Assembly (NCBI RefSeq): GCF_964213995.1
Contig: NC_135830.1
Location: forward strand, 11,036,001 to 11,100,000
Direction of reading: 5' to 3'
DNA length: 64,000 nt
DNA from: Mustelus asterias
Lineage: Eukaryota
The position numbers and the translations under genes were made by a program. The notes beneath the pieces were generated by a model. It was given only the letters and a program-made list of their open reading frames with translations. It did not search any database and had not been told where the DNA came from. Of the stretch, positions 1-63,807 are shown one piece after another (within the stretch, counting starts at the first letter, position 1; each line of letters opens with the position of its first letter).

Positions 1-51
1 CAACCACCAAGCTTATCTTTGGCAGTGGAACCAAACTCACTGTAGAACCCA
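1..51 (+). CDS. TRDJ: TCR J gene segment (last J-delta before C-delta), 5' end cut by window edge
   Basis: Frame from nt 3 reads TTKLIFGSGTKLTVEP (FGXG motif), followed by a phase-1 donor GTAAGT at 52-57. The RSS lies outside the window. Confidence 0.93.
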
Positions 52-7417: not shown

Positions 7418-7729
7418 AGGCGAAAGGCCCGGTGGAGCCTAAATTGAGCGTCTTTTACCCGCCAGTGCCACGGGGAGCCACCGGCATCGACACAGCTGCA
7501 GTATGCTTGGCCTCGGACTTCTCGCCCAACGCAATCATGCTCTCCCTGTACACGGGATCGGGCCAGGAGGTCAATGTGACAAGATCCAGTGTCCTATTGG
7601 AGAGCGGGAATTACAGGAGCTCGGGTTTTCTCTCTTTCCGCCAATCCGAGAAATCGCCAAACATCACGTGCAAGGCATTTCACGATAATCGAAATTACTC
7701 AGTAAACATCCCGCCCACAGTTGAAATTG
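7418..7729 (+). CDS. TRDC: TCR delta constant region exon 1 (Ig C1 domain)
   Basis: Acceptor TTTTCAG (phase 1), donor GTAAGT at 7730. Reads AKGPVEPKLSVFYPP...AAVCLASDFSP...SSVLLESGNYRSSGFL...NITCKAFHDNRNYS. The SGxY and TCxxxHDN motifs resemble C-delta rather than C-alpha. Confidence 0.9.
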
Positions 7730-8517
7730 GTAAGTTTATTTTATTTTCGTTCACGTGATGTGGGTGTCGTTGGCTTGGCCAACATTTATTGCCCGTCCTA
7801 AACTGCCCTTCAGCAGAAGACATTTAAGAGTCACTTGCCGGCCAGACCATGTAAGGACGGCAGATTTCGTTCGCTGAAGGAAGTTAGTGAACCAGATGAG
7901 TTTTAATGATAATCGACAATGGTTTCAGGGTCATCATGAAACTTTTAATTCCAATTTTTAAAAAAATGTTCAAATTTCGCAGCTGCCATCCCCAGGTCAG
8001 CATTCTGGGTCGTTGGATTACCAGTCCAGTGACAATGCCACTGCGCCACTGCCTCCTCTCAGAATGTTTTATGACAGGAAGAACTTGCACTAAATATTAT
8101 CCATCCTCTTAACGACCTAAGGACTCTCGGTGTCATCGTCACTCAAAGTGTAGTCTTTTTGAAAGATTAGCTGACTAATGATTGACGGTCAATTATCCTA
8201 GTCTGGGGACTTCACTGCAGGAGTTCCTCAGTGTCTCAGGCCTAACCAGCTTCAGTTGCTTCATCAATCACCTTCAATCCATTGTAAGGTCAGAAGTTGG
8301 GATGTTCGCTGATGACTGAACAATTTTCAGCACCATTCATGACACCTCAGATCTTGAAGTAGTGCATTACAAATGCACCAATAGCTGGACAATACCGAGG
8401 CTTTGACTGACAAGCTGCAAGTAACATTTGCGCCACACATGTTCCAGGCAATGACCAACTCCAACAGGAAAGAAGCTAACAACCGGCTCTTGACATTTAA
8501 TGGCATTACCATGACTG

Positions 8518-8898
8518 AAACAAAGAACAAAGAAAATTACAGCACAGGAACAGGCCCTTCGGCCCTCCAAGCCTGCACCGACGATGCTGCCCGACTTAAC
8601 TAAAACCCCTTTCCCTTCCGGGGACCATATCGCTCTATTCCCATCTTATTCATGTATTTGTCCAGATGTCCCTTAAAACTCACTATCATATCTCCTTCCA
8701 CTACCTCCCCCGGCAGCGAGTTCCAGGCACGCACCACCTTCTGTGTAAAAACTCTGCCTCGTACGTCTCCTTTAAACCTTGCCCCTCGCACCTTAAATCT
8801 ATGCCCCCGAGTAATTGACTCTTCCACCCTGGGAAAAAGCTTCTAACTATCCACTCTGCCCATGCCTCTCATAATCCTGTAGACTTCTATCAGGTCAA
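8518..8898 (-). mobile_element. CR1 LINE 3' fragment
   Basis: ORF 8600-8827 TRGHRFKVRG...WNSLP, and an (AACAAAG)n tail. Confidence 0.85.
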
Positions 8899-9159
8899 CC
8901 CCCACTATCAACATCCTGAGGGTTAACGTTGCTCAGAAACTGGACTGGACTATCCATATAAGTGCTGTAGCTGCAAGAGAATGTCGGAGATTGGGAATCC
9001 TGTGGTGAGTAACGTATCTCCTCATCCCCCAAATTCTCTGCCCCATCCACAAGACATAATCATGACTGTGGTAGTGTATTCGCCACTTGCCTCGATGAAT
9101 GCAGCTCCAATAACACTCAGACATTTGACACGACCCAGGACAAAGCAGCTCCGCTTGAT

Positions 9160-9530
9160 TAACAGTGTGTTTATGAGTGTCACAAGTCGGCTTACATTAA
9201 AACTGCAATGAATTTATTGTGACAATCCCATAGTCGCCACACTCTGTGCCTGTTCGGGTACACTGAGGGAGAATTTAGCATGGCCAATGCATCTAATCAG
9301 CACGTCTTTCGGACTGTGGGAGGAAACCGGAGCGCCCGGATCAAACCCACGCTGACACGAGGAAAACGTGCAGACTCTGCACAGACAGTCACCCAAGCCG
9401 GGAATCGAACACAGGTCCCTGACACTGTGGGCGGGGGGGAGTGGAGGGGGGGGGCGGAGGGGAGTGGCGGGGCGTTGGGGGGGGGGGGGGGGGGTGGCGG
9501 TGCAGCAGTACTAACCACTGTGCCACTGTG
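9160..9530 (-). mobile_element. tRNA-derived HE1-related SINE with a G-rich insert
   Basis: Reverse complement of the core GGTTTCCTCCCACAGTCC and the head GCACAGTGGTTAG. Confidence 0.75.
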
Positions 9531-10450
9531 CGGCTCAAGCATTAAGTACTCTATTCACAAATATCCACTTCTTCCACCACCGAAGCACAATGGCAGCAGT
9601 GTGTGCCATCCACAAGATACACAGCAGTAACTCTCCAAGTCTCCTTCCGCTGAATCTTCCAAACTCACGACCGTTATCTTCTCGGAGGACAAGGGCAGCA
9701 GATACCTGGGAACACCATCATCTGGACGTTACCCTCCATGTCACTCAGCATCCTGACTTGGAAATGTTTCGGCAGTTCCTTCACTGTCGCAGAGTCAAAA
9801 TGGTGGAACTTCTTCCCTAACAGCACTGTGTGTGTACGTACCCCTGACAGACTGCAGAGGTTCAAGCAGGAGACTCACAACCATCTTCTGAAGGGGGCAA
9901 TTAGGGATTGGCAATAAATGCTGACCTGCCAGTGATGTCCACATTCCGTAAATGAATAAAAATAATAAGAGCTAACTATTATAATTCAGGGCAGTGTGCA
10001 GGACCCGTAACTGCTGGTACATCACCGAATTTAGGAACGTATTAAATACTAACCAGGGTAGTGGAGAATCCCGTTCCTCTGGAGAAATGCCCTGATATCA
10101 TTTAATCCACTGCAGAGCTGAAATCAGGCCTCGGTTTCACGACGTTTTCGGAAGACAGTGAAATACTGCACTGATGGAACGGCTCTGGATCCTGGGTTTT
10201 AATCCCTGATGGGGAATCTACCCTGCACTCTTTGAACTCAGAATTGGGACGAACTAAATGGCAGAGCTACCAATGTTTCTCCGTTGTGAATAATCAAGTG
10301 AACAAGTCCAATCGTGCTGTTTGATTCTTACTTTCTTCGTGGCTTTTGGTTATGACAACAACATTATTCAAAGTGATATTGAGAACAAACATGGTTACAG
10401 TAATGTCACTTGCTCACTTAATAAGTCAAATGTCATTTTTGCCCTTCCAG

Positions 10451-10513
10451 ATAAACCTAAATGCCCTACAGGTCGAAGTGATTCCTTGACAGAATCAAGT
10501 GACACGGAAAACG
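10451..10513 (+). CDS. TRDC: TCR delta constant exon 2 (connecting peptide with interchain Cys)
   Basis: Acceptor CCTTCCAG, donor GTATGT at 10514. 63 nt, phase 1/1, DKPKCPTGRSDSLTESSDTEN. No alpha-chain FETDxxLN motif. Confidence 0.88.
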
Positions 10514-10955
10514 GTATGTGCTTTATTCAACATTTATCAAAGTAAAATACTTGCAAATAGACGGATTGATAAGTGGACAAATAGGCACGGATACAGACCC
10601 GGAGATTGAATGATAAACATATAGTGAGATGGGGAAAAAGATAGATTGTCACACAGAGTGAGGGAGAGAGATATATCAATCGAGCGGGATAGCGAGAGAG
10701 GAGGAGAGGCGGGGAGAGAGAGAGAAACTCAGAGTGAAAGAGAGGTGAAGATAGATAGACAGGCAAGCAGACGGTCGGACGGACGGACTGACAGAGATGG
10801 ACAGACGGACGGACGGACAGGGATGGACAGACGGACGAAAGTCAAGCTGTTAGATAATGGAAAAAATATCACATTAGAGGTATACAGTTGTTTTTCAATA
10901 CCAAATCACATATCCATTAAACCAGATCTATCATTTGTTTCTCTTATTTTGGCAG

Positions 10956-11066
10956 ATCGACTGAGGGTGAACTTTTTGTCTTTGACGGTGATGGGGCTAA
11001 GAATTTTGTTTTTCAAGAGCATTGTCTTCAATGTCATGATGACGGCCAGGGTGTGGCTATTTTGAG
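10956..11066 (+). CDS. TRDC: TCR delta constant exon 3 (transmembrane/cytoplasmic, stop codon)
   Basis: Acceptor TTTTGGCAG. Reads DRLRVNFLSLTVMGLRILFFKSIVFNVMMTARVWLF*, with the alpha/delta-type intramembrane Arg and Lys. Donor GTAAGG follows one base after the stop. Confidence 0.93.
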
Positions 11067-39883: not shown

Positions 39884-41256
39884 ATGAGGCTCTTTTTTTG
39901 TCATCTGGTTATATTGTGGCTGGTGTTCGGTATGGAAAACGATAACTTTCTTTTTGCTGGCAGTATTGTGATGTTAATGGACTCTCCACTCAGTGTTGAT
40001 TAAACCTTTCCATATATTTTATTCCAGGGCTGATTCAAGCAGATTCTGTGTCGCAACCCCAGATTGAACTGTATATTAATGAAGGCGATAGAGTGAAAAT
40101 GGACTGCAGCTACAGGACAACTTACAGCGATCCTGGTCTTTACTGGTATGGACAGCATACGGGCCAAGCTCCGCATTTTATTTTATTTTTTTCGGCCCAA
40201 CTTGTCCACGTCGCCCTTTTTTGAAACCCCGAAGCTCATGCCAATTGCCCGTATTTGGCCCATATCCCTCAATACCCATTTTACTCATGTAAGTGTCTAA
40301 ATGCTTTTTAAAAGACCAAATTATACCCACTCCACCACTATCTCTGGCAGCTTGTTCCAGACACTCATCACCCTCTGTGTGAAACAATTGCCCCGCTGAA
40401 CACTTTTGTATCTCTCCCCTCTCACCTTAGAACTCTGCCCTCTAGGTCTCGACTCACTTATCTTTGGGAAAATATACTGAATATATTGCTGATCTGTGCC
40501 GCTCATTATTTTATAGACCTCTGTAAGATCATCCCTCAGCCTTCTACGCTCCAGAGAAAAAAGTCCCAGTCTATCCAGCCTCTCCTTATAACTCAAACGA
40601 TCAAATCCCGGTAGCATCCTAGTAAATCTTTTCTGCACTCTTTCTAGTTTAATAATATCCTTTCTATAATAGGGTGACCAGAACTGTACACAGTATTCCA
40701 AGGGTGGCCTTACCAATGTCTTGTACAACTTCAAGAAGACATCCCAACTGCTGTATTAAATGTTCTGACCAATCAAACCAAGCATGCTGAATGTCATCTT
40801 CACCACTCTGCCCGCCTGTGACTCCACTTTCAAGGAACAATGAACTTGCACCCCTAGATCTCTTTGGTCTGTAACTCTCCCCAACGCCCGACCATTAACT
40901 GATTAAGTCCTGCACTGGTTCAATCTATCAAAATGCATCACCTCGCATTTACCTAAATTAAACTCCATCTGCCATTCGTCAGCTCACTGGCCCAATTGCT
41001 CAAGTTCCCTTTGCAATCGGAGGTAACTTTCTTTACTTTCCACTGTGCCACCAATCGTGTTGTCATCTGCAAACTTACTAACCATGCCTCCTATATTCTC
41101 ATCCATTTTGTATCAAGATAGAAGCAACAGAAGAGACGCAGCTTTTGCAAAGGGAAAATTGGAGGCCGGCCAGAGGAATGCAGAAAATAACTTTCCTTTA
41201 ACGATTACTCGAGCAGAAATCCAAGACACCGCTGTCTATTTCTGCGTGTTGGGAGA
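39884..41256 (+). pseudogene. TCR alpha/delta V gene disrupted by a CR1 insertion
   Basis: Leader 39884-39929 (MRLFFCHLVILWLVF, donor GTATGG). V 5' half from 40028 (ADSVSQPQ...MDCSYRTTYSDPGLYWYGQHTGQAPHF). V 3' half 41105-41256 (ILYQDRS...QDTAVYFCVLG). Confidence 0.92.
40190..41104 (-). mobile_element. CR1 LINE 3' fragment inside the V exon
   Basis: ORF 40321-40734 LYKTLVRPPLEYCVQFWSP. Same subfamily as 4592-6258. Confidence 0.9.
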
Positions 41257-41295
41257 CACAGAGGTTTAAAACTCATCTGTCGCTGGACAAAAACC
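41257..41295 (+). other. 23-RSS of the disrupted V
   Basis: CACAGAG + 23 nt + ACAAAAACC. Confidence 0.9.
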
Positions 41296-46824: not shown

Positions 46825-47000
46825 TTGGAGATCCAGCCACTGCCCTCTGGAGTGAAATTAAAAACAGGAATGGTAACTTCACAACGTATCTAAGAGAGTG
46901 CATGTGGTATCCATCATTTATACTGGTACAAGCAACAACTAGACACACAGCCCGAATTTACTCTGATGAAATGCACGAGCGAGTATTTAGATAAAGCCTC
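46825..47000 (+). pseudogene. 5' half of a degenerate TCR V pseudogene
   Basis: GMVTSQRI*ESACGIHHLYWYKQQLDTQPEFTL. The Cys23 position is CGT, there is an in-frame TAA, and a repeat truncates it near 47005. Confidence 0.7.
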
Positions 47001-47459
47001 AATCAAAGAAACAAAGATACATAGAAACAAGTCGGCCATTCGGCCCTCGGAACCCGATCCGAAATTCATTGTTATCAAGACTGATCACCAAATTCAATTT
47101 TCTGATTCCGCTTCCGCCCCCCCCCCCCCGCCCATATCCCTTGATCCCTTTCGCCCCAATAATTATACCTAATTTCTTCTTGAAATCACACAACATTTGC
47201 GTCCAGAGCCCTGACTTTCTCACGGCCTTTCGCTTATTTTTATTTCTGTCGCTCTCTATCCTTTTATTTACGTTTCCATGACTTTCTTCCTCCCTATTTT
47301 GTTCAATAACTCAGTCATGAAATATCGCTCTTTTACATCGATAAACGCTTTATTTCTGATTAAAATCGCACAGCTGTGAACAGTCGGTGGCGTTGTCTAC
47401 TGTCGCCAGAGGTGAAGATTTAGAATTCAGACACACAAGTGATGTGAAATTCCAGTGAT

Positions 47460-47498
47460 AGTTTCTGTACGGGGCCTGTATCAGTTTGTATCACGGTG
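47460..47498 (-). other. 23-RSS of the inverted V
   Basis: CACCGTG + 23 nt + ACAGAAACT on the - strand. Confidence 0.88.
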
Positions 47499-47806
47499 AA
47501 TGTTCAGCGCACAATAATACATGCCACTGTCACTCAGCTGTGCATCTGTCAGAGTTAAACTGTAGAAACGATTCGATGCTTGTAGTGTTGAAGATAATCG
47601 GCCTCCCACACGCCCAGCTTTCTCTGTTTCTCCTTCCGAATTCCTTCTGGTTAAAAAAAACAGCTCCTCCCCCGGTTTTTGTCGGTACCAGAGCAGGTCA
47701 TAGCGGCGGCTGTCTGTGGAAAACGAACAGGGCAACACCATGCGTTCTTCCTCCAAACATGATACCGATGATGCAAGCTGTTTAACAGCATCAGAATAAC
47801 ACAGTC
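47499..47806 (-). CDS. TCR alpha/delta V exon, open frame, inverted relative to C-delta
   Basis: Acceptor TTTGAAG (phase 1). Reads SDAVKQLASSVSCLEEERMVLPCSFSTDSRRYDLLWYRQKPG...LSDSGMYYCALNI. Confidence 0.92.
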
Positions 47807-50910: not shown

Positions 50911-51277
50911 AAATGTTGTGGGGAAAAAAGCACGATTAGGCTGAGTGGATGATCAGCCATGACCGTAATGAATGGCAGAGCATGCTCGAAGAGCCAAGTG
51001 GTCTCCTCCTGCTCCTATCATCAATGCCTCTCTGATTCATAGCCGTGTCCCCAGATTGTTACTTGGATTACTAAACCTCTGGATTTCTAATCCAGTGATA
51101 ATACCTTTATGCCGCCGTCTCCCCAACTACAGTGAATAAATGTCGAACACCCTTCAATGAAACACTTACAGCAAAATGGCCAGCTATGGACGCGATTATG
51201 TTTCCCCGGGAAAACTAACATGCAAGGCAGGTAAAAGCATCACAGAAATATTTTGTATTATTTTATAGGTTCTGCAG

Positions 51278-51629
51278 AATCTGGTTTATCTGTGTCACAG
51301 AATCCATCTCTCCAAACCTCTACTGCTAAAGACACCATTACTTTAAACTTTGAATATCCGGGATTTTGACAACACGCACTCCACTGGTACCGTCACTCCC
51401 CAAGACAGACCCCAAAATACCTGCTTAAGAGACACACATCAGGCGAGGCGAGCAAAGAAAACGCTACGGGGGGGGGGGGGGGGAGAATTTCTGCTTCTGT
51501 CGATCCCCTTGAAAAAATCAGCCGGTTAACGATCTCCAAACTGCAACTGAGTGACTCCGCTGTGTATTACTGTGCACTGAGTGGGCGCACAGCAGTGATG
51601 CAGAACACGGTGAGAGCTGTACAGAAACC
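51278..51629 (+). pseudogene. NAR-TCR supporting V-delta paralogue, pseudogene, with defective 23-RSS
   Basis: SGLSVSQNPSLQTSTAKDTITLNFEYPGF*QHALHWYRHSP...LQLSDSAVYYCALSGRT. Cys23 is TTT (51349-51351), the CDR1 Cys position is TGA (51367-51369), and there is a G16 run. The RSS is AGCAGTG + 23 nt + ACAGAAACC. Confidence 0.85.
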
Positions 51630-51675
51630 TGAACATGGTGAGAAGTACAAGAATCTGTAACCCTAACCATGTTCA

Positions 51676-51836
51676 GGTTTTTGTACAGCTCTCTCCGTGT
51701 TCTGTATCACCGTGTCTGTAATTCTCACCATGTTCAGGTTTTTGAACAAATCTCTCCGTGTTCTGCATCACCGTGACTGTAATTCTCACCATGTTCAGGT
51801 TTTTGAACAAATCTCTCCGTGTTCTGTATCAGTGTG
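51676..51836 (-). repeat. Three tandem 23-RSSs (61-bp period)
   Basis: 51798-51836 CACACTG/23/TCAAAAACC; 51737-51775 CACGGTG/23/TCAAAAACC; 51676-51714 CACGGTG/23/ACAAAAACC. Confidence 0.93.
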
Positions 51837-52142
51837 CTGTGCGCTCACTCAGTTCACAGTAATACACAGCGGAGTCGCTCAATTGTAGTTTGAAGATCTC
51901 TAACCGGTTGCTTTTGACTGACGAATGGGTAGAAACAGAAATTCCGTCCCCGGCAACCTGTTTCTTATTATCCTCTCCTGAAGTGTGTGTCTGAAGGAGG
52001 TATTTCGGAGCCTGTCCTGGGGATTGACGGTACCAGTGTACTGTATATTGACAGTTCCCTGAATATTCACAGCTTAAAGTAACCGTGTCACCTGCGGCAG
52101 ACGTTTGGAGAGGTGAACTCGGTGACACAGTTGAGCTGGAAT
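51837..52142 (-). CDS. NAR-TCR supporting V-delta (leaderless, CDR1 Cys), open frame
   Basis: Acceptor TCCTGCAG (phase 1). Reads SSSTVSPSSPLQTSAAGDTVTLSCEYSGNCQYTVHWYRQSPGQAPKYLL...LSDSAVYYCELSERT. Extra Cys at 52051-52053. No leader exon was found between it and the J at 58977. Confidence 0.85.
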
Positions 52143-54338
52143 CTGCAGGATAGAAATAAAATGAATTGTTTCTTTAGCCACTGTTTACCCCGGGAAAACT
52201 TTTCAATCGGGTGAATACCTGTCTGTTGCGGTAATTTGTTTAACTGAATTTGTTTCAAAAAGCATTGATTATTGGAAATAAACAAGAGTGGCAGATCTTC
52301 AGACCTTTTTTCACAGAGAATTGCAGTCACCTGAAGTGAACAGCGAAAAGGGTGGTGCTGGGAGCTGATTTAACATTGACTTTCAAATGGTAATTGGGGG
52401 AGGGCGGGGGGGGGGGGGTGGAGGGGAGAACTTCTGGGACAGGACAATATTCCAGTGCCAAGGGGACCAAAGAAGGCCGAATGGGTACATTGGCAGCACC
52501 TTCAAATTATTGTCTCCATTGACAGAATTGTGTTTTGTTGCGGAGTATGATTCTATTTTTATTAGAAAGGTGCCAATAAATATATTGGCGAAATACGAAC
52601 CAGGAAACGAAATCATAAAGTTCACTCTTCTCCTCACATAATAATTTGCTGTCTAGGTTTCATTGCTCAAAGGACAATCAGCAGTTTTATGTCCCTGTAT
52701 GTATCAAGGTTCAGCACGGGGCAGAGATATTCGTCCGCATCTATTAATCCAAACTGACAATGTATATCCGTGGGTCAATGATCGACCTTTGGCCGCAGTT
52801 CAACACTGCAAGTTAATGTCTGCTATTTGTCTATTTCCGTCCATCGATTCTACCGTTTTACTTCTAGTAGAAATATTTGCAAGTTGATTTAGTTCTTTTT
52901 CTGCATCTGAGTTGTTTCCTGCCTGTTCTTCGTGGTTTCCAACCGTCATGAGAACTTGCACAAATTTCTCGCAGTTGTCGGTTGGGTTCAGCCTGTTCAA
53001 TTTCCGCAGTGGTGTTACTGTTACTCACTGGGCACTGTCTTCAGGGTATGTGAGAATTTCAATCCCTTTAGTACATTGGCTGATTGTCCTTTCCGAACAG
53101 AATTGTCTCAAAGTTTTACATTCTACACTTTCCACTTAAAACGAATAGGCCACTGGGCCCAGCTGGCCGAAGCTTGTTCTTGCCCCTTCTCCTCTCGAAC
53201 AGGAAATAACAATTTACATCCTGAGCTGTGTGTCTATTTATTCCTCTCTCCCGCCCATATTTTTCAAGCTTGCCATAAATTCATCACGCCGTTTCTCCAA
53301 ACAGCGACCTATACATTCTGATGTGTCTCCGTGTAAACATACCCGAATATTTCTATCTGTTCTGGTCATAATTTCATGTGTAAACGTCTCCTTGCTCTGG
53401 GGACCCAGGTTTGAATCCTGCCTCGGCAGCTGGTAGAATATGACTTCAATAAAAATAAAACCTGGAATTAATAATCTACTGCTGATCATGAAGCCATTCT
53501 CGATGGCTGTCAAATTCCATATGGTTCACTAATGTCCTTTAAGCAAGGAAATATGGCGTTCTTACCCTGTCTGGCCTATATGTGACTCTAGAATCACAGC
53601 AATGTGGTGGACTCTTAACTGATCTCTGAAATGGACGAGCAAGCCTCTCATTTCAAGGGCGAACAGGGATGCACAATAAATGCTGGCCAAGCAGCGACAC
53701 CCATGTCACACAAATGAATTAATTAAAAACCTTACTCCACTGAAGGATGAGTTTCTGCACATGGAGCTCCTAGAAACTAAAACACAATGTTAAATATTTC
53801 TCTGCTGTTTTTTCATGCCTTACAGGTCTGTAAGAGACAAATGGCAAAGCGTTCCTGAACTTTCGCTATCCATACACATTGTTGATTATTTATTTTCTCA
53901 GGAATGTGAGAAATGTAAGCTGATAATAAGATACATAAGAAATAGAAACATGGTAGACCGATCCATTTTGGGGACCCGCTGTCCAATTCAGGAAGTTTAG
54001 TTCTGATCATCAACCTCAATGAGAACTGCGTGCTCTATTCCAAAATCCATTGTTTCCATTAGTATTCAAGAATAGAATCTATGGAACGGTTCAGCATCCT
54101 CAGCCTCGACACAACCAATCCTTGAGGAACTGATTAAGCTTCAATGAGCACAATCCCATGTTTTCGAAATCGAGAAAATATAATGCAAACCGATTTATCC
54201 ACCGTCAGTGTTCAATATGTGGAAGAGTATGCAATTCAAAGTTTTCACAATTCTGCCAAAGCAGAAATTATCGACTATCGGATGAAAATAAAAATCAGGT
54301 AGGATATAATTATTGTTAGTCACTGATTGTGCAAGAAT

Positions 54339-57300
54339 GAACAAAGAACAAAGAACAATACAGCATAGAAACAGGCCCTTCGGCCCTCCAAGCCCGTGCC
54401 TCTCCCTGGTCCAAACTAGATCATTCTTTTGTATCCCTCCATTCCCACTCCGTTCATATGGCTGTCTAGATAAGTCTTAAACGTTCCCAGTGTGTCCGCC
54501 TCCACCACCTTGCCTGGCAGCACATTCCAGGCCCCCACCACCCTCTGTGTAAAATATGTCCTTCTGATATCTGCGTTAAACCTCCCCCCCTTCACCTTGA
54601 ACCTATGACCCCTCGTGAACGTCACCACCGACCTGGAGAAAAGCTTCCCACCGTTCACCCTATCTATGCCTTTCATAATTTTATACATCTCTATTAAGTC
54701 TCCCCTCATTCTCCGTCTTTCCAGGGAGAACAACCCCAGTTTACCCAATCTCTCCTCATAACTAAGCCCCTCCATACCAGGCAACATCCTGGTAAACCTC
54801 CTCTGTACTCTCTCCAAAGCCTCCACGTCCTTCTGGTAGTGTGGCGACCAGAACTGGGCGCAGTATTCCAAATGCGGCCGAACCAACGTTCTATGCATCT
54901 GCAACATCAGACCCCAACTTTTATACTCTATGCCCCGTCCTTTAAAGGCAAGCATGCCATATGCCTTCTTCACCACCTTCTCCATCTGTGACGTCACCTT
55001 CAAGGATCTGTGGACTTGCATACCCAGGTCCCTCTGCGTATCTACACCCTTTATGGTTCTGCCACTTATCGTATAGCTCCTCCCTACATTATTTCTACCA
55101 AAATGCATCACTTCGCATTTATCAGGATTGAACTCCATCTGCCATTTCTTTGCCCAAATTTCCAGCCTATCTAGAACCTTCTGTACCTTCTGACAATGCT
55201 CCTCACTATCTGCAAGTCCAGCCAATTTTGTGTCGTCCGCAAACTTACTGATCACCCCAGTTACACCTTCTTCTAGATCGTTTATATAAATCACAAACAG
55301 CAGAGGTCCCAATACAGAACCCTGCGGAACACCACTAGTCACAGGCATCCAGCCGGAAGAAGACCCCTCCACTACCACCCTCTGTCTTCTGTGACCAAGC
55401 CAGTTCTCCACCCATCTAGCCACCTCCCACTTTATCCCATGAGATCCAACCTTTTTCACCAGCCTTCCATGGGGGACTTTGTCAAACGCTTTACTAAAGT
55501 CCATATAGACGACATCCACGGCCCTTCCCTCGTCAACCATTCTGGTCACTTCTTCAAAAAACTCCACCAGGTTAGTGAGGCATGACCTCCCTCTCACAAA
55601 ACCATGCTGACTATCGTTAATGAGTTTATTTATTTCTAAATGCGCATACATCCTATCTCTAAGAATCTTCTCCAACAACTTCCCCACCACGGACGTCAAG
55701 CTCACCGGCCTATAATTACCCGGGTTATCCTTCCTACCCTTCTTAAATAACGGGACCACATTAGCTATCCTCCAATCCTCTGGGACCTCACCTGCGTCCA
55801 GTGACGAGACAAAGATTTGCGTCAGAGGCCCAGCGATTTCATCTCTCGTCTCCCTGAGCAGCCTTGGATAGATTCCATCAGGCCCTGGGGATTTGTCAGT
55901 CTTTATATTCTCTAACAAACCTAACACTTCCTCCCTTGTAATGGAGATTTTCTCCAATGGTTCAACACTCCCCTCCGAGACACTCCCAGTCAACACATCC
56001 CTCTCCTTTGTGAATACCGACGCAAAGTATTCATTTAGGATCTCCCCTACTGCTTTGGGCTCCAAGCATAATTCCCCACTATCGTCCCTGAGAGGTCCGA
56101 TTTTTTCCCTGACAACCCTTTTGTTCTTAACATATGAATAAAATGCCTTTGGATTCTCCTTAATCCTGTCTGCCAAGGACGTTTCGTGACCCTTTTTTGC
56201 CCTTCTAATTCCCCGTTTGAGTTCTTTCCTACTTTCTTTGTACTCCTTCAGAGCTCCCTCCGTTTTTAGCTGCCTGGACCTAACATACGCCTCTCTTTTC
56301 TTTTTGACCAGTCCCTCAATTTCCCTGGTTATCCACGGTTCTCGAATCCTACCCTTCCTATCCTTCTTTTTTACAGGCACATGCCTATCCTGCAGCCCTA
56401 ACAACTGTTCCTTAAAAGACTCCCAAATGCCAGATGTGGATTTACCCTCAAACATCCTCTCCCAATCAAGAGCTGCCAATTTCTGCCTAATCCCACTAAA
56501 GTTAGCCTTCCCCCAATCCAACACCTTACCCTTGGGACACCACTCATCCTTTTCCATCACTCTCCTAAAGCTAACAGAATTGTGGTCACTATTTGCCACA
56601 TGTTCCCCTACCGAAACTTTGAAGACCTGACCGGGCTCATTCCCCAGTACTAGATCCAGTATAGCCCCGTCTCTCGTCGGGCTATCTACATATTGTTCCA
56701 AAGAACCCTCCTGTACGCATTTTACAAATTCCTCCCCATTCAGAGTCCCAGCTCTCAGCGATTTCCAGTCTATACCAGGGAAATTGAAGTCTCCCACTAC
56801 AACAACCCTACTTTTCCTGCACCTATCCAGTATCTCCTGACATATCCGTTCTTCCACTTCCCTTGGGTTGTTGGGGGGCCTGTAGTACACCCCCAACACC
56901 TCAAACTACCTCAAGTCACATGAGCAGCCTGGGAATGGAGGGATACAAACGAATGGTCTAGTTGGACCAAGGAGCGGCACAGGCTTGGAGGGCCGAAGGG
57001 CCTGTTTCCTGTGCTGTACTGTTCTTTGTTCTTTGTTAGTGACTGCGCCCTTCCTGTTCCTAAGCTCCACCCAGAGTGACTCGTTACACGACCCCTCTGA
57101 ATTGTCCTCGCTCTGCACCCCTGTAATATGCTCTCCAACTAATACTGCTACTCCCCCACCTCTTTTGGCCCCTTCTCTGTCTCGCCTAAAACGCTTGTAC
57201 CCCGGAATATTCAGCTGCCAGTCCTGTCCCTCTTTCAACCAAGTCTCCGTCACCACAATCACATCCAAATTCCTCGTGAGCATTAAGGCCCTAAGTTCGT

Positions 57301-57740
57301 CTGTCTTACCTGCTACGCTCCTTGCATTGCAGTATAAGCACTCCAGACCTCCAGGCCCAGTGAGGTCATCCTCCCCCAGAGTGCTCTTCTTCTTTGCCAG
57401 CCTTGTCCCAGTCCCAAGCTCGTCCCCAGCCTCGACACTTGTAGACCTAATATTTTGATCCCCACCCCCCCTGCCATACTAGTTTAAACCCCCCCGAACT
57501 GCACTAGCAAAACTCCCAGCCAGGATATTCGTGCCCTTCCAACTTAGTTGTGACCCGTCCTTCTTGTACAGGTGCCATCCTCTCCTGAAATCTTCCCATT
57601 GATCTAGGAAAATGAAGCCCTCCCTCCTGGACCCGTCCTTTAGCCAAGTATTCAATTGTACTAACTCCCTATTCTTAGCCTCACTGGCACGAAGCATTGG
57701 GAGCAGCCCAGAGATGGCCACCCTGGAGGCCCTACTTTTT
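54339..57740 (-). mobile_element. CR1 LINE (end of ORF1 + ORF2) with a nested short CR1 3' end at about 56899-57035
   Basis: An 827-aa ORF at 54416-56899, APE N-terminus 56906-57283 and ORF1 end 57479-57721. (AACAAAG)n tail. Confidence 0.95.
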
Positions 57741-57819
57741 AGTCTAATGAAATGCCATCAACAACTATAAAATGATCTTGAAGATATTTGTGCCATGTTC
57801 CCTGGCACGAGCGGCATGG

Positions 57820-58156
57820 ACGGCACGGTAGCACAGTGGTTAACACTGCTGCTTCACAGCTCCAGGGACCTGGGTTCGATTCCCGGCTTGGGTCACTGTC
57901 TGTGTGGAGTTTGCACATTCTCCTCGTGTCTGCGTGGGTTTCCTCTGTGTGCTCCGGTTTCCTCCCACAGTCCAAAGATGTGCAGGTCAGGTTGATTGGC
58001 CAAGCTAAAATTCCCCCTTAGTTTCCTGAGATGCGTAGGTTAGAGGGATTAGTGGGTGGATTTGGGGGTAGGGCCTGTGTGGGATTGTGGTCGGTGCAGA
58101 CTCGATTGGCCAAATGGCCTCTTTCTGCACTGTAGGGTTTCTATAGTTCTATAGTT
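57820..58156 (+). mobile_element. HE1-type SINE
   Basis: CGGCACGGTAGCACAGTGG head, GGTTCGATTCC B box and TTCTATAG tail. Confidence 0.9.
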
Positions 58157-58976
58157 CCCGTTTTCCTGTCACTGCAGGTATTGGATCTGTCGCTGCAATG
58201 TTGGATTAACTCTCCCGCTACCTGATTCACATTTCCTGGAGCAGAGAGAAATCCTGTGCTTAGTGACTCCGCTGTTTCTCAGCGGAGGGCAGGAAGCAGG
58301 GTTCGGAGTGTCCACAATGTGTTTTTTATTCATTCTTGAGACATGTGCGTCATGGCTGACTGGCTGCCCATCCCTCGTTACCCAAGGGCAGTGGAGAGTC
58401 TACCACATTGCTGTGGTTCTGCAGCCACATATAGGCCAGACCAGGTAAGGATCACAGCTTTCCTTCCCTGAAAGACATTAGTGAACCAGATGGATTTTTC
58501 TAATAATCGACAATGGTTTCATGGTCATCGGTAGATTCTCAATTCCACGTATTTTTATTGAATTGGAATTCCGCCATCGGCCCTGGCGGGACTCCCCGAA
58601 TTCTCCTCTCACCTGGGAAGAAGCAGCGCCCCGAAAGCTTGTGATTCCAAATAAACCTGTTGGACTTTAACCCGGTGTTGTGAGACTCCTTACTGTTCCT
58701 TAAACCAACAATGGTTCAGATGGGGTCAGCTGACCCTCCTTCCCCATAGGATACCTATCCTTTGGAGACTCACACTGCTTCAATCCGGTCTCAAGGCCCG
58801 ACCCGATTTCAGTTTCTTATTCTGCTCCCAAGTCTAAATTTGCAAATGAAGAGCTTCCTTTGCGAACCACCCCGCTTCAGAAGCACAGCAGTGAAGTGTT
58901 ACTGATAACGAATAATAACTGATGGTGAACACTAACCAGGATAGTGAATAACACAAGGGGACTTGGAATCACTTAC

Positions 58977-59029
58977 GGGCTGTGACAGTCACTACCGCCT
59001 CAGACCCATCTGAAAATCTCCATTCACCC
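58977..59029 (-). CDS. NAR-TCR J segment (Ig-type, possibly decayed)
   Basis: GEWRFSDGSEAVVTVTA plus a phase-1 donor GTAAGT (58976-58971). It is directly preceded on the - strand by CACTGTG. Confidence 0.78.
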
Positions 59030-59068
59030 CACAGTGACAGAGCTCCCAGTCTGCCCAGCACAGGAATG
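59030..59068 (-). other. 23-RSS of the NAR-TCR J
   Basis: Read on +: CACAGTG (59030-59036) + 23 nt + ACAGGAATG (weak nonamer). Confidence 0.72.
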
Positions 59069-59228
59069 ACTGACACCTCAAACTACTGGGCAACCATTAC
59101 CGGACTGTCAGCTTTTCTCAATTATTCAGGGAATTTAGATCAATAATGAACTTGATTGTTTAAAAAAAACCTCATTGAATCAAACGGTGCCTTGTGACTT
59201 GCTGAGCTCCTGGAAAAATAGCCCAGGA

Positions 59229-62015
59229 ACAGAGACTTGGTTGAAAGAGGGACAGGAGTGGCAGCTGAATATTCCGGGGGACAAGTGTTTTAGGCGAGAC
59301 AGGGGAGGGGCCAAAAGAGGTGGGGGAGTAGCAGTATTAGTTCGAGGGCATATTACAGCGGTGGAGGGAGGGCAATTCAGAGGGGTCGTGTAATGAGTCA
59401 CTGTGGGTGGAGCTCAGAAACAGGAAGGGCGCAGTCACTATGTTGGGGGTATACTACAGGCCCCCGAACAGCCCAAGGGAAGTGGAAGAACGGATATGTC
59501 AGGAGATAATGGATAGGTGCAGGAAAAATAGGGTTGTTGTAGTGGGAGACTTCAATTTCCCTGGTATAGACTGGAATTCGCGTCGGGCTGGGACTCTCAA
59601 TGGGGAGGAATTTGTAAAATGCGTACAGGAGGGTTCTTTGGAACAATATGTAGATAGCCCGACTAGAGAGGGGGCTATACTGGACCTAATACTGGGGAAT
59701 AAGCCCGGTCAGGTCTTCAAAGTTTCGGTAGGGAAACATGTGGCAAACAGTGACCACAATTCTGTGAGCTTTAGGATAGTGATGGAAAAGGATGAGTGGT
59801 GTCCCAAGGGTAAGGTGTTGGATTGGGGGAAGGCTAACTTTAGTGGGATTAGACAGAAACTGGCAGCTGTTGATTGGGAGAGCCTGTTTGAGGGTAAATC
59901 CACATCTGGCATGTGGGAGTCTTTTAAGGAACAGTTGTTAGGGCTGCAGGATAGGCATGTGTCTGTAAAAAAGAAGGATAGGAAGGGTAAGATTCGAGAA
60001 CCGTGGATAACCAGGGAAATTGAGGGACTGGTCAAAAAGAAAAGAGAGCCGTATGTTAGGTCCAGGCAGCTAAAAACGGAAGGAGCTCTGGAGGAATACA
60101 AAGAAAGTAGGAAAGAACTCAAACGAGGAATTAGAAGGGCAAAAATGGGTCACGAAATGTCCTTGGCAGACAGGACTAAAGAGAATCCCAAGGCATTTTA
60201 TACATACGTTAGGAACAAAAGGGTTGTCAGGGATAAAAATCGGACCTCTCAGGGACAAAAGTGCGGAATTAGAGCCCAAAGAAGTAGGGGAGATCCTAAA
60301 TGAATACTTTGCGTCGGTATTCACAAAGGAGAGGGATGTGTTGACTGGGAGTGTCTCGGAGGGGAGTGCTGACCCGTTAGCGAAAATCTCCATAACAAGG
60401 GATGAAGCGTTAGGTTTTGTTAGCGAATATAAAGACGGACAAATCCCCAGGGCCTGATGGAATCTATCCAAGGCTGCTCAGGGAGACGAGAGATGGAATC
60501 GCTGGGCCTCTGACGCAAATCTTTGTCTCGTCACTGGACACAGGTGAGGTCCCAGAGGATTGGAGGATAGCTAATGTGGTCCCGTTATTTAAGAAGGGTA
60601 GGAAGGATAACCCGGGTAATTATAGGCCGGTGAGCTTGACGTCCGTGGTGGGGAAGTTGTTGGAGAAGATTCTTAGAGATAGGATGTATGCGCATTTAGA
60701 AATAAATAAACTCATTAACGATAGTCAGCATGGTTTTGTGAGAGGGAGGTCATGCCTCACTAACCTGGTGGAGGTTTTTGAAGAAGTGACCAGAATGGTT
60801 GACGAGGGAAGGGCCGTGGATGTCGTCTATATGGACTTTAGTAAAGCGTTTGACAAAGTCCCTCATGGTAGGCTGGTGAAAAAGGTTGGATGTCATGGGA
60901 TGAAGGGGGAGGTGGCTGAATGCGTGGAGAACTAGCTTGGTCACAGAAGACAGAGGGTGGTAGTGGAAGGGTCTTTTTCCGGCTGGATGCCTGTGACTAG
61001 TGGTGTTCCGCAGGGCTCCGTGTTGAGACCTCTGCTGTTTGTGATCTATATAAACGATCTGGAAGAAGGTGTAACTGGGGTGATCAGTAAGTTTGTGGAC
61101 GACACGAAAATGGCTGGACTTGCAGATAGTGAGGAACATTGTCAGAGGCTACAGAAGGATCGAGATAGGCTGGAAATCTGAGCAAAGAAATGGCAGATGG
61201 AGTTCAATCCAGATTAATGCGAAGTGATGCATTTTGCCGAACTAACGTAGGGGGGAGCTATACGATAAATGGCAGAACCATAAAGGGTGTAGATACGCAG
61301 AGGGACCTGGGTGTGCAAGTCCACAGATCCTTGAAGGTGACGTCACAGGTGGAGAAGGTAGTGAATAAGGCATATGGCATGCTTGCCTTTAAAGGACGGG
61401 GCATAGAGTATAAAAGTTGGGGTCTGATGTTGCAGTTGTACAGAACGTTGGTTCGGCCGTATTTGGAATACTGCGTCCAGTTCTGGTCGCCACACTACCA
61501 GAAGGACGTGGAGGCTTTTGAGAGAGTGCAGAGGTGGTTTACCAGGATGTTGCCTGGTATGGAAGGGCTTAGTTATGAGGAGCGATTGGGTAAACTGGGG
61601 TTGTTCTCACTGGAAAGACGGAGGATGAGGGGTGACCTAATAGAGGTGTATAAAATTATGAAACGAATAGATAGGGTGAACGGTGGGAAGCTCTTTCCCA
61701 GGTCGGTGGTGACGTTCAGGAGGGGTCATAGGTTCACGGTGAGGGGGGGGGGTGGGGGGGGGGGGTGCGGGGGATGGGAGGTTTAACACGGATATCAGAA
61801 GGACGTATTTTACACAGAGGGTGGTGGGGGCCTGGAATGCGCTGTCGGGCAAGTTGGTGGAGGCGGACACACTGGGAACGTTTAAGACTTATCTAGATAG
61901 CCACATGAACGGAGTGGGAATGGAGGGATACAAAAGAATGGTGTAGTTTGGACCATGGAGCGGCGCGGGCTTGGAGGGCCGAAGGGCCTGTTCCTGTGCT
62001 GTATTGTTCTTTGTT
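59229..62015 (+). mobile_element. CR1 LINE, 5'-truncated decayed ORF2, between NAR-TCR V and J
   Basis: ORF pieces 59407-61946 are near-identical to the 54.3-57.7 kb and 12.9-16.6 kb copies. TTCTTTGTT tail. Confidence 0.95.
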
Positions 62016-62191
62016 GGAACAGAGGCAGAGATGGAAGATTCTTATTAACGGCGAAAAATCTTGAAGAATTATAACTGATGGGAGGAAATTACAATGAAAT
62101 TAAACCAAATTGAAGTGGGAGTAACATCAACCCGAAAGGTCAAGTTACCGAACTTGGGAATTGCTGGGCATTACTTCTTCGATTGCCATGA

Positions 62192-62219
62192 GCTATTTGT
62201 TCTCCTCTCTTCCACTGCG
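62192..62219 (-). other. 12-RSS-like signal after the NAR-TCR V(D)
   Basis: - strand CGCAGTG + 12 nt (GAAGAGAGGAGA) + ACAAATAGC. The heptamer has one mismatch, inside the critical CAC. Confidence 0.65.
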
Positions 62220-62497
62220 GTATCCCATGTGTGTAGTTCCAGTTCTGAGCTTTGCAGTGTCTTCAACTCTCAAATCCCGATTTTCAAGTGAAAATGTCTT
62301 TTCTGCTTTGTTCACCGAGACAACAAATCTCCCTCCGCTGGAGATCCGCTCCCTGGTTGTCCCGGTCGGGGTTTTTCTAAAGAAATGGCCATTTTCGAAA
62401 TCATAAACTCCAGAGAAAACACAGATGATGGTGGGAGACTGACACTCCTTCCTGATCACCGCTGCCGGGCTCTGTGTCACTGACTGACTGAAACATC
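62220..62497 (-). pseudogene. IgNAR-like NAR-TCR V exon (FR1 Cys), pseudogene, probably germline-joined to D
   Basis: QSVTQSPAAVIRKECQSPTIICVFSGVYDFENGHFFRKTPTGTTRERISSGGRFVVSVNKAEKTFSLENRDLRVEDTA. It has the short CDR2-less VNAR-type core and an extra Cys at 62442-62444. The YYC region is deleted, causing a frameshift. Confidence 0.87.
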
Positions 62498-62645
62498 CTG
62501 GAAATTAAACACAGAGAGTTTATTGGACCACCAGAGCCGAACCATACAACGGCGTTAAAATCCTAGGCAGTGCCTGCAATAGGGATGGACTGGGGCAGCA
62601 CTTTATTCAATCCACAGGATGTGGGTTAATGTGATCGATACTCAC

Positions 62646-62684
62646 GGGTAAACAGATACACAGGGTGAAAACAAGGATTCCCAT
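62646..62684 (-). pseudogene. Leader exon of the NAR-TCR V
   Basis: MGILVFTLCICLP + GTGAGT. It is 39 nt (phase 0), which mismatches the phase-1 V acceptor, so it is probably damaged. Confidence 0.65.
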
Positions 62685-63319: not shown

Positions 63320-63365
63320 ATGCAGATATTCAGAATCTGTATTATGTTTGGGATAATTATTGTCG
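63320..63365 (+). CDS. Leader exon of TCR alpha/delta V
   Basis: GCAGCCATG context, MQIFRICIMFGIIIV + G, donor GTAAGG. Confidence 0.9.
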
Positions 63366-63454
63366 GTAAGGATGATTCCAATCATGTTCCATTCAGATTG
63401 GCGTTATATTTTATATTAACACGCGATTTTTTCTTGCTCCCAAACACATGACAG

Positions 63455-63768
63455 ATCAGAGTGATGGAGATTCAGTTACTCAGTCCCAGTCTTCAGAGAG
63501 CGGGAGAGAAGGGGAAACCGTGACTATAAAATGTACCTATCACACTACAGAAGAAATGTATTATGTCTATTGGTACCTGCAGCTACCAGCGAAGGAGCCC
63601 GAGTTTGTTGTGTGGAGACGGTCTTGGGATGTTGTGGAATGGAAAGGCTCGGCGTTAGGAAACCGTTTTGCTTCAGACCTCCAGCTGTCAGACTCCACCG
63701 CAAGTTTAACCATCATGGACTTGCAGACGACCAACGCTGCCATTTATTACTGCGCTCTCTCTGAGACT
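63455..63768 (+). CDS. TCR alpha/delta V exon, intact
   Basis: DQSDGDSVTQSQSSESGREGETVTIKCTYHTTEEMYYVYWYLQLPAKEPEF...NAAIYYCALSET. Confidence 0.93.
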
Positions 63769-63807
63769 CACAGTGATTGAAAAGAGTACCGACCCTGTAC
63801 AAAAACT
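63769..63807 (+). other. 23-RSS
   Basis: CACAGTG + 23 nt + ACAAAAACT. Confidence 0.95.

Follow-up and report, generated by a model that had tools for sequence, protein, structure and literature searches.

The window, a stretch of 64,000 nucleotides from the shark Mustelus asterias, opens on its plus strand with the last J-delta segment of a TCR cluster (1..51; TTKLIFGSGTKLTVEP), whose 12-RSS lies just left of its border, followed by a constant gene composed of an Ig exon (7418..7729), a connecting-peptide exon (10451..10513) and a transmembrane/cytoplasmic exon (10956..11065). The assignment of this gene at 7418-11065 to C-delta in an initial sequence-only reading is borne out by the presence of 12-D-23 segments in sibling clusters, by the location of the alpha loci elsewhere and by two rearranged NAR-TCR proteins, which run into a constant region homologous to that of the window. 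Its identity as C-alpha was rejected based on the presence of seven J segments and a D-derived 23-RSS and the absence of a long D-less J array. Two other loci with dozens of J segments carry the other type of transmembrane exon (68-74% identical) and constitute the alpha loci. The database label 'alpha-like' on the window gene is automatic, and a search with Pfam PF09291 for C-alpha, run without a positive control, yielded no match. Downstream of C-delta, we have also observed a V gene split by a repeat (40030-41295, plus strand), a V gene fragment (46850-47010, plus strand) and an open V with a 23-RSS (47460-47800, minus strand).

Further downstream, the minus strand harbors a cassette whose parts, consisting of a leader, a V, a 12-RSS, a 23-RSS, a J, a supporting V and another 23-RSS, were all located where the sequence-only reading had placed them. 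It starts with a leader exon of 39 nt in phase 0 (62646..62684, with its ATG at 62684), defined by alignment with eight paralogues, in which the TATA-like motif on its 5' side reads CATATAAA compared to CATGTGAA in the window. The succeeding V exon (62220..62497), characterized by alignment, PDB search and trees, is a pseudogene fused to a former D; it contains the FR1 cysteine of the a-b loop within KECQS and, with GHFFRK replacing WYRK, is devoid of the canonical tryptophan. Its 12-RSS (62192..62219, minus strand) carries the heptamer CGCAGTG instead of the CACAGTG of intact paralogues and is homologous to the 3' RSS of NAR-TCR D segments. A repeat of 2.8 kb (59235..62015, minus strand) with a 9-bp target-site duplication (CTCTGTTCC) separates the V from the 23-RSS of the NAR J (59030..59068, plus strand; CACAGTG-23-ACAGGAATG, with the nonamer ACAAGAATG in paralogues) and from the J itself (58977..59029, minus strand; GEWRFSDGSEAVVTVTA), which contains DGSE where paralogues contain DGSG. 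The intron between J and supporting V, which spans 6.8 kb in the window compared to about 2-3 kb in paralogues, contains a second repeat (54340..57746, minus strand); both repeats are reverse-transcriptase-like and we take them to be of the LINE class. The leaderless supporting V-delta (51837..52142, minus strand; private residues DGISVSTHSSVKSNRLE) is, as originally claimed, still open, for 101 codons, and has kept its CDR1 cysteine in SGNCQY. It is followed by three tandem 23-RSS at a 61-bp period (51676..51836, minus strand; starts at 51836, 51775 and 51714), and such arrays, with two to five or more copies, were found behind every supporting V seen, paralogues included. On the plus strand, a mirror-image supporting-V pseudogene (51270..51633) shows a CDR1 cysteine codon turned into a stop, a frameshift and a damaged heptamer, and the NAR V and J of this mirror arm are absent from the window. 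The out-of-phase leader, the two extra tandem 23-RSS, the mirror pseudogene and the two LINE-like insertions go beyond the initial reading. An ordinary, intact-looking TCR alpha/delta V with leader and 23-RSS (63320-63807, plus strand) lies in a back-to-back arrangement with this leader of the NAR V.

Between 51500 and 63000, three RSS of a strict definition were observed, whereas 200 Markov resamples contained 0.11 on average and never reached this number. Since this excess is accompanied by the recurrence of the same anatomy in paralogues, the cassette is not a product of chance. The J donor and the supporting-V acceptor are both in phase 1, and the proposed in-frame junction is recovered from the sequence, where a J ending in GCC C ahead of the donor GT and an acceptor AG ahead of AT TCC would be spliced to encode VTVTA-H-SSSTV. 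Both cysteines of the proposed interdomain disulfide, one in FR1 of the NAR V and the other in CDR1 of the supporting V, are present.

Identity and orientation of the cassette

The assignment of the cassette to NAR-TCR is supported by a PDB search and by trees, where its first V groups with NAR V and not with ordinary TCR V. In the PDB search, VNAR or NAR is named in 27 of the best 30 of 34 matches and a TCR V in none, and it is this search that provides the link to IgNAR, of which the trees contained no row. Two trees, with 34 and 19 rows, place the NAR V among NAR-TCR V sequences (99) and the second V among supporting V sequences (95, in the 19-row tree), with both domains apart from ordinary V in either case. 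The two domains share 73% and 74% identity with a white shark protein, which corresponds, by description only, to an entry labeled NARTCR V(gj) in Table S1 of PMC12227049. A PDB search with the supporting V returned generic antibody fragments only, and a homologue search for short proteins gave four uninformative matches. The leaderless nature of the supporting V was also upheld in a scan of the whole 6.8-kb intron, which detected no leader-like exon in its vicinity and only three weak candidates, all more than 2.2 kb from its acceptor; as controls, the leaders of the NAR V, of V63 and of an upstream V were recovered. As in the described NAR-TCR, whose traits include a cysteine in the a-b loop, the absence of the WYRK tryptophan and a leaderless second V with a cysteine in CDR1 (PMC1845163), the locus thus combines a leader, a NAR-type V with both features, its own J, a leaderless supporting V-delta with CDR1 cysteine and a C-delta.

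The heptamer of the supporting V is found at a distance of 51.85 kb from the nearest J-delta heptamer on the opposite strand. Within the established 12/23 geometry of recombination, this V would therefore be usable only by inversion. Distance and orientation are thus in line with the proposed inversion of more than 50 kb towards D/J-C-delta, except for its target: the adjacent cluster contains seven J but no free D, so that the join would lead straight to a J with a 12-RSS. In this cluster, the D has previously been joined to a pseudo-V that lies 12.2 kb upstream of the window, in a joint that is trimmed and contains no N bases. Because the nearest unjoined counterpart of this pseudo-V is set apart by a 1.6% difference and a 1.5-kb indel, a germline origin of the joint is, by our own estimate from the sequence, somewhat likelier than a somatic one. 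On another contig (C401), D-delta is joined to a supporting V of the kind found in double cassettes, 99.9% identical to an unjoined copy, which illustrates that RAG reaches this V family, a statement on access irrespective of orientation.

In humans, TRDV3 and TRBV30 are V segments located 3' of C in opposite orientation. With such inverted V segments behind C-delta or C-beta, which are also noted in PMC12227049, the cassette shares its position, its orientation and a predicted use by inversion only, whereas it differs as a whole two-V unit that is located about 52 kb away in a V field facing both ways. The inverted position is not peculiar either, since reverse-strand NARTCR V genes past a TCR constant gene are tabulated for white shark, where seven NARTCR entries are listed past the TCR-alpha C entry, four of them on the opposite strand and one germline-joined (Table S1 of PMC12227049).

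Upstream of the cluster, a stretch of about 98 kb (C71:10.926-11.024 Mb) is an inverted paralogue, with 98-99.8% identity, of a region 6.3 Mb away on the same scaffold (C71:4.704-4.783 Mb). A fully joined VH-D-JH exon with YYCAWQTSLPATNFVDFWGPG, found 37 kb upstream of the window (L028:2625-3304; paralogue at C71:4.728 Mb), is disrupted by a fragment of its own leader region in inverted orientation, and the stretches fetched contained no constant exon for it.

Fusion of V and D and pairing of cassettes

The deletional V-J join proposed for the cassette is sound in its geometry, with a 12-RSS facing a 23-RSS, but a direct V-J arrangement departs from the NAR-TCR standard of this genome, where seven mapped canonical cassettes follow the order V(22/23)-12D12-23J. 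The direct layout instead marks a subfamily with fused V and D segments. The interval between RSS and J in the window aligns with the D-to-J interval in all three canonical cassettes compared (z 10-22) and with none of their V-to-D intervals (z -2 to 1). Judged from these alignments, the 12-RSS is the 3' signal of a D segment. An origin of the 12-RSS by a shift of the heptamer inside the 23-spacer of the V itself was ruled out, since its flank corresponds to the D-to-J interval. The fusion is common to 32 copies, with the heptamer reading CACAGTG in 12, CACAATG in seven and CGCAGTG in three of them and being dead in the remaining ten, and in many copies the V coding end is fused to D with retention of the D 3' RSS, as expected for a germline-joined VD-J configuration.

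By analogy with shark Ig clusters, which are partly germline-joined as VD-J (PMC4279169) and which similarly contain V and D fused in inherited DNA with one join left, although in an Ig and not in a TCR, it appears likelier that V and D have been joined by RAG in the germline. The fused 12 nucleotides (CACATGGGACAC) also resemble a remnant of the V heptamer and spacer, with the full V coding end followed by CAC and ATGGG, as at the start of heptamer and spacer in every canonical V signal aligned. They lack the GT found at the end of free NAR D segments, and no matching free D was detected among the mapped canonical cassettes or in a pattern search of one D family. Consequently, the fusion would also be compatible with a plain deletion of genomic DNA that reached from the V heptamer to the D. 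However, the break of the fusion coincides exactly with the V coding end, the D 3' RSS is whole, the 5' end of the fused piece is equally reminiscent of D starts such as CAAATGG and the locus contains other clean and trimmed coding joints, one of them common to three diverged clusters. We regard a deletion as possible but rather doubtful, and favor germline joining by RAG. In a NAR-TCR cassette on C173 (L065:5071-5135), the D is already joined to its J with both ends trimmed, in an event of either germline or somatic origin. Just upstream of a NAR-TCR V on C111 (1.001-1.020 Mb), we found about 19 kb of a CA-rich satellite with more than 100 CACAGTG heptamers.

A second feature of these cassettes concerns their arrangement. 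All four fetched pairs show a face-to-face layout of the type NARV-J-STV><STV-J-NARV, and the coordinates of the 40 scored among 69 candidates reveal at least 12 face-to-face pairs. By comparison, the window cassette is the one arm that survives from such a double cassette, with the pseudogene at 51270-51633 on the plus strand as leftover of the second arm.

State of the cassette in the window

The NAR V, described as decaying in the sequence-only reading, is indeed damaged, but this description understates its condition, since no fewer than four independent lesions have made it a complete pseudogene, consisting of a leader frameshift, a 13-nt deletion, the CGCAGTG heptamer and the LINE-like insertion. 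With 39 nt and phase 0, compared to 43 nt and phase 1 in the intact members among the eight aligned paralogues, the leader by itself puts the V out of frame. The deletion at about 62258 has removed ATYY and shifted the second canonical cysteine (YYC) out of frame, so that the N-terminal frame is broken twice. As a full pseudogene, the window copy is thus unable to make a two-V chain, and its sequence identifies it as a dead member of the NAR-TCR family and not as the source of an expressed two-V delta chain. The same lesions are found in two near-identical copies, located at C71:12.33 Mb and on C111 (98%), and the window shares 99.6-99.95% identity over 60 kb with C71:12.27-12.33 Mb. The lesions are thus older than these duplications, and they are best explained by a cassette that was carried along with its lesions in segmental duplications.

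The supporting V shows dN/dS values of 0.29-0.55 against eight open paralogues, compared to 0.20-0.35 among four canonical ones, with no clear sign of current selection. RNA contigs from four runs, aligned to the intact arm of a paralogue, match only small portions of the two V exons, show differences of the paralogue type and contain no V-J or splice joint, a result that speaks neither for nor against expression. No transcript was found that displays splicing of J to the supporting V or a product of inversion. The open frame could reflect continued use, if a working NAR V or VD of another cassette were to join its J, or if the exon were spliced into another transcript, and selection would in this case keep it open. 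The open frame, the intact acceptor and the three 23-RSS in all three copies, the presence further along the scaffold of VD copies with intact 12-RSS on the same strand and a dN/dS below 1 are all compatible with such use. However, the three copies are 98-99.9% identical and thus constitute one recent sample, the NAR J of the window contains DGSE and a weak nonamer, the branch of the supporting V is longer than those of its canonical counterparts and its dN/dS takes in a functional past. We thus consider continued use to be quite improbable.

C-delta miniclusters and related receptor loci

Throughout the assembly, the C-delta Ig exon (90-100% identity), the transmembrane exon and the D-delta 3' signal were each identified 19 times. 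Three C-delta copies, at 7.14, 11.04 and 12.27 Mb, reside on the scaffold of the window, at a distance of 6-11 Mb from the alpha locus of this scaffold, and the two J-alpha/C-alpha loci of the assembly (C71:18.43 Mb and C546:242 kb) are both separate from the C-delta units. D-delta is free in 13 of the 19 units and joined to a V in the other six. An identical joint of a supporting V to D-delta is found in three diverged clusters (C119, C436 and C96; L102-L104) and was therefore inherited. The flanks of D and J form 14, 12, 9 and 7 types at 99.9, 99.5, 99 and 97% identity, with 75-80% identity between types at the lowest. It is thus likely that at least seven to nine of the 19 C-delta genes are real, and a part of the copies might be duplicates that arose somatically or in the assembly. 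In several clusters (C110:954.9 kb, C71:7.102 and 12.241 Mb), VH-like V segments with a 23-RSS, which we assume to be TAILV-like, were observed between D-delta and the NAR-TCR cassette.

A more radical interpretation would treat the neighborhood and the 19 copies largely as assembly products, including haplotigs, collapsed repeats and lymphocyte DNA, with only one to three real C-delta genes and a somatic V-D joint upstream of the window. Such an origin would be consistent with the location of 16 of the 19 copies on unplaced pieces, with the identity of several D-J flanks at 99.7-100% and with the near-identity of the window to C71:12.27-12.33 Mb over 60 kb. It would also agree with two contigs, C401 (L094) and C850 (L095), where different V joins are found on an identical D-J flank and the first of which starts 560 bp ahead of its V, a pattern expected of somatic products; both resemble somatic products of the 12.27-Mb cluster and possibly originate from captured lymphocyte DNA. 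These observations are countered by the seven types of D-J flanks at 97% and nine at 99% identity, by C exons that differ by up to 10%, by three copies with different upstream architecture on one 20-Mb scaffold, with no N gaps in the stretches fetched, and by the 1.6% difference and 1.5-kb indel between the joined V and its nearest unjoined counterpart. Moreover, in the sevengill shark Heptranchias perlo, two different C-delta gene models (P0010 and P0039) reside on one contig, and the duplication is thus not confined to Mustelus asterias. An origin of the copies largely from the assembly is therefore unlikely, and we favor a genuine multiplication of C-delta.

Repeated D-J-C-delta miniclusters constitute an antibody-like layout that is not expected for a TCR. 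The TCR alpha/delta locus is termed a translocon in PMC12227049, which, with a Table S1 that makes no claim to completeness, gives stingray and catshark a single C-delta entry apiece, with C-alpha directly after it, in contrast to the 19 D-J-C-delta units apart from two J-alpha/C-alpha loci in the Mustelus asterias assembly. A literature search, weak and mostly conducted at title level, listed no paper that describes more than one C-delta gene in a shark. Compared to the described NAR-TCR, the window has no free D in the first rearrangement and instead contains a V-D fusion with a 12-RSS, its N-terminal V is dead, it retains a double-cassette remnant and it is inverted behind C-delta. A closer parallel to the repeated units is found in the TCR-mu clusters of marsupials and monotremes, with the order Vmu-Dmu-Jmu-Vmuj-Cmu, which have been termed the sole TCR with a germline-joined V (PMC7615758). 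Both systems contain repeated clusters, two V domains and a pre-joined supporting V, which in the shark is the V-D on C119, C436 and C96; the shark clusters differ by an N-terminal V of NAR type instead of VH type, by several J per cluster and by an independent origin.

Collectively, we are confident that the window contains a pseudogenized NAR-TCR cassette, with V and D likely pre-joined in the germline, which lies in inverted orientation 52 kb behind one of numerous D-J-C-delta miniclusters. In an intact member, a first RAG-mediated join would connect the fused VD with its 12-RSS to the 23-RSS of the NAR J by deletion, and a second would connect the leaderless supporting V with its 23-RSS to the 12-RSS of D-delta or J-delta, which, in the orientation found here, would necessarily proceed by inversion. 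Splicing of leader, VDJ, supporting V and C would then generate a two-V delta chain. In the window copy, any inversion would result in an out-of-frame, non-productive allele. With less assurance, but still on balance, we favor the broader proposal that TCR-delta, once a single translocon, has become an Ig-like family of seven to 19 self-contained miniclusters of the type NAR V-D-J - supporting V - D - J - C-delta. This family would be independent of J-alpha/C-alpha and would draw on dozens of double NAR-TCR cassettes that are orientation-proof, and germline RAG activity would have edited it repeatedly (as VD, supporting V-D and DJ). It would thus constitute a convergent shark equivalent of marsupial TCR-mu, with the window showing one cluster and one dead cassette.

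On its own, the cassette is a dead member of a known receptor and ordinary as a pseudogene; its relevance lies in the view that it offers onto a multiplied and partly pre-joined TCR-delta locus. NARTCR V genes that are scattered, inverted and germline-joined have been tabulated before for white shark, and it is the multiplication of C-delta that is the less expected part. If true, repeated C-delta miniclusters that contain pre-joined segments would soften the line between cluster and translocon organization that separates Ig from TCR, and they would provide a living parallel for the emergence of TCR-mu from TCR-delta. They would also make it possible to test allelic exclusion in the presence of many delta loci and RAG-mediated joining by inversion across distances from 50 kb to megabases.
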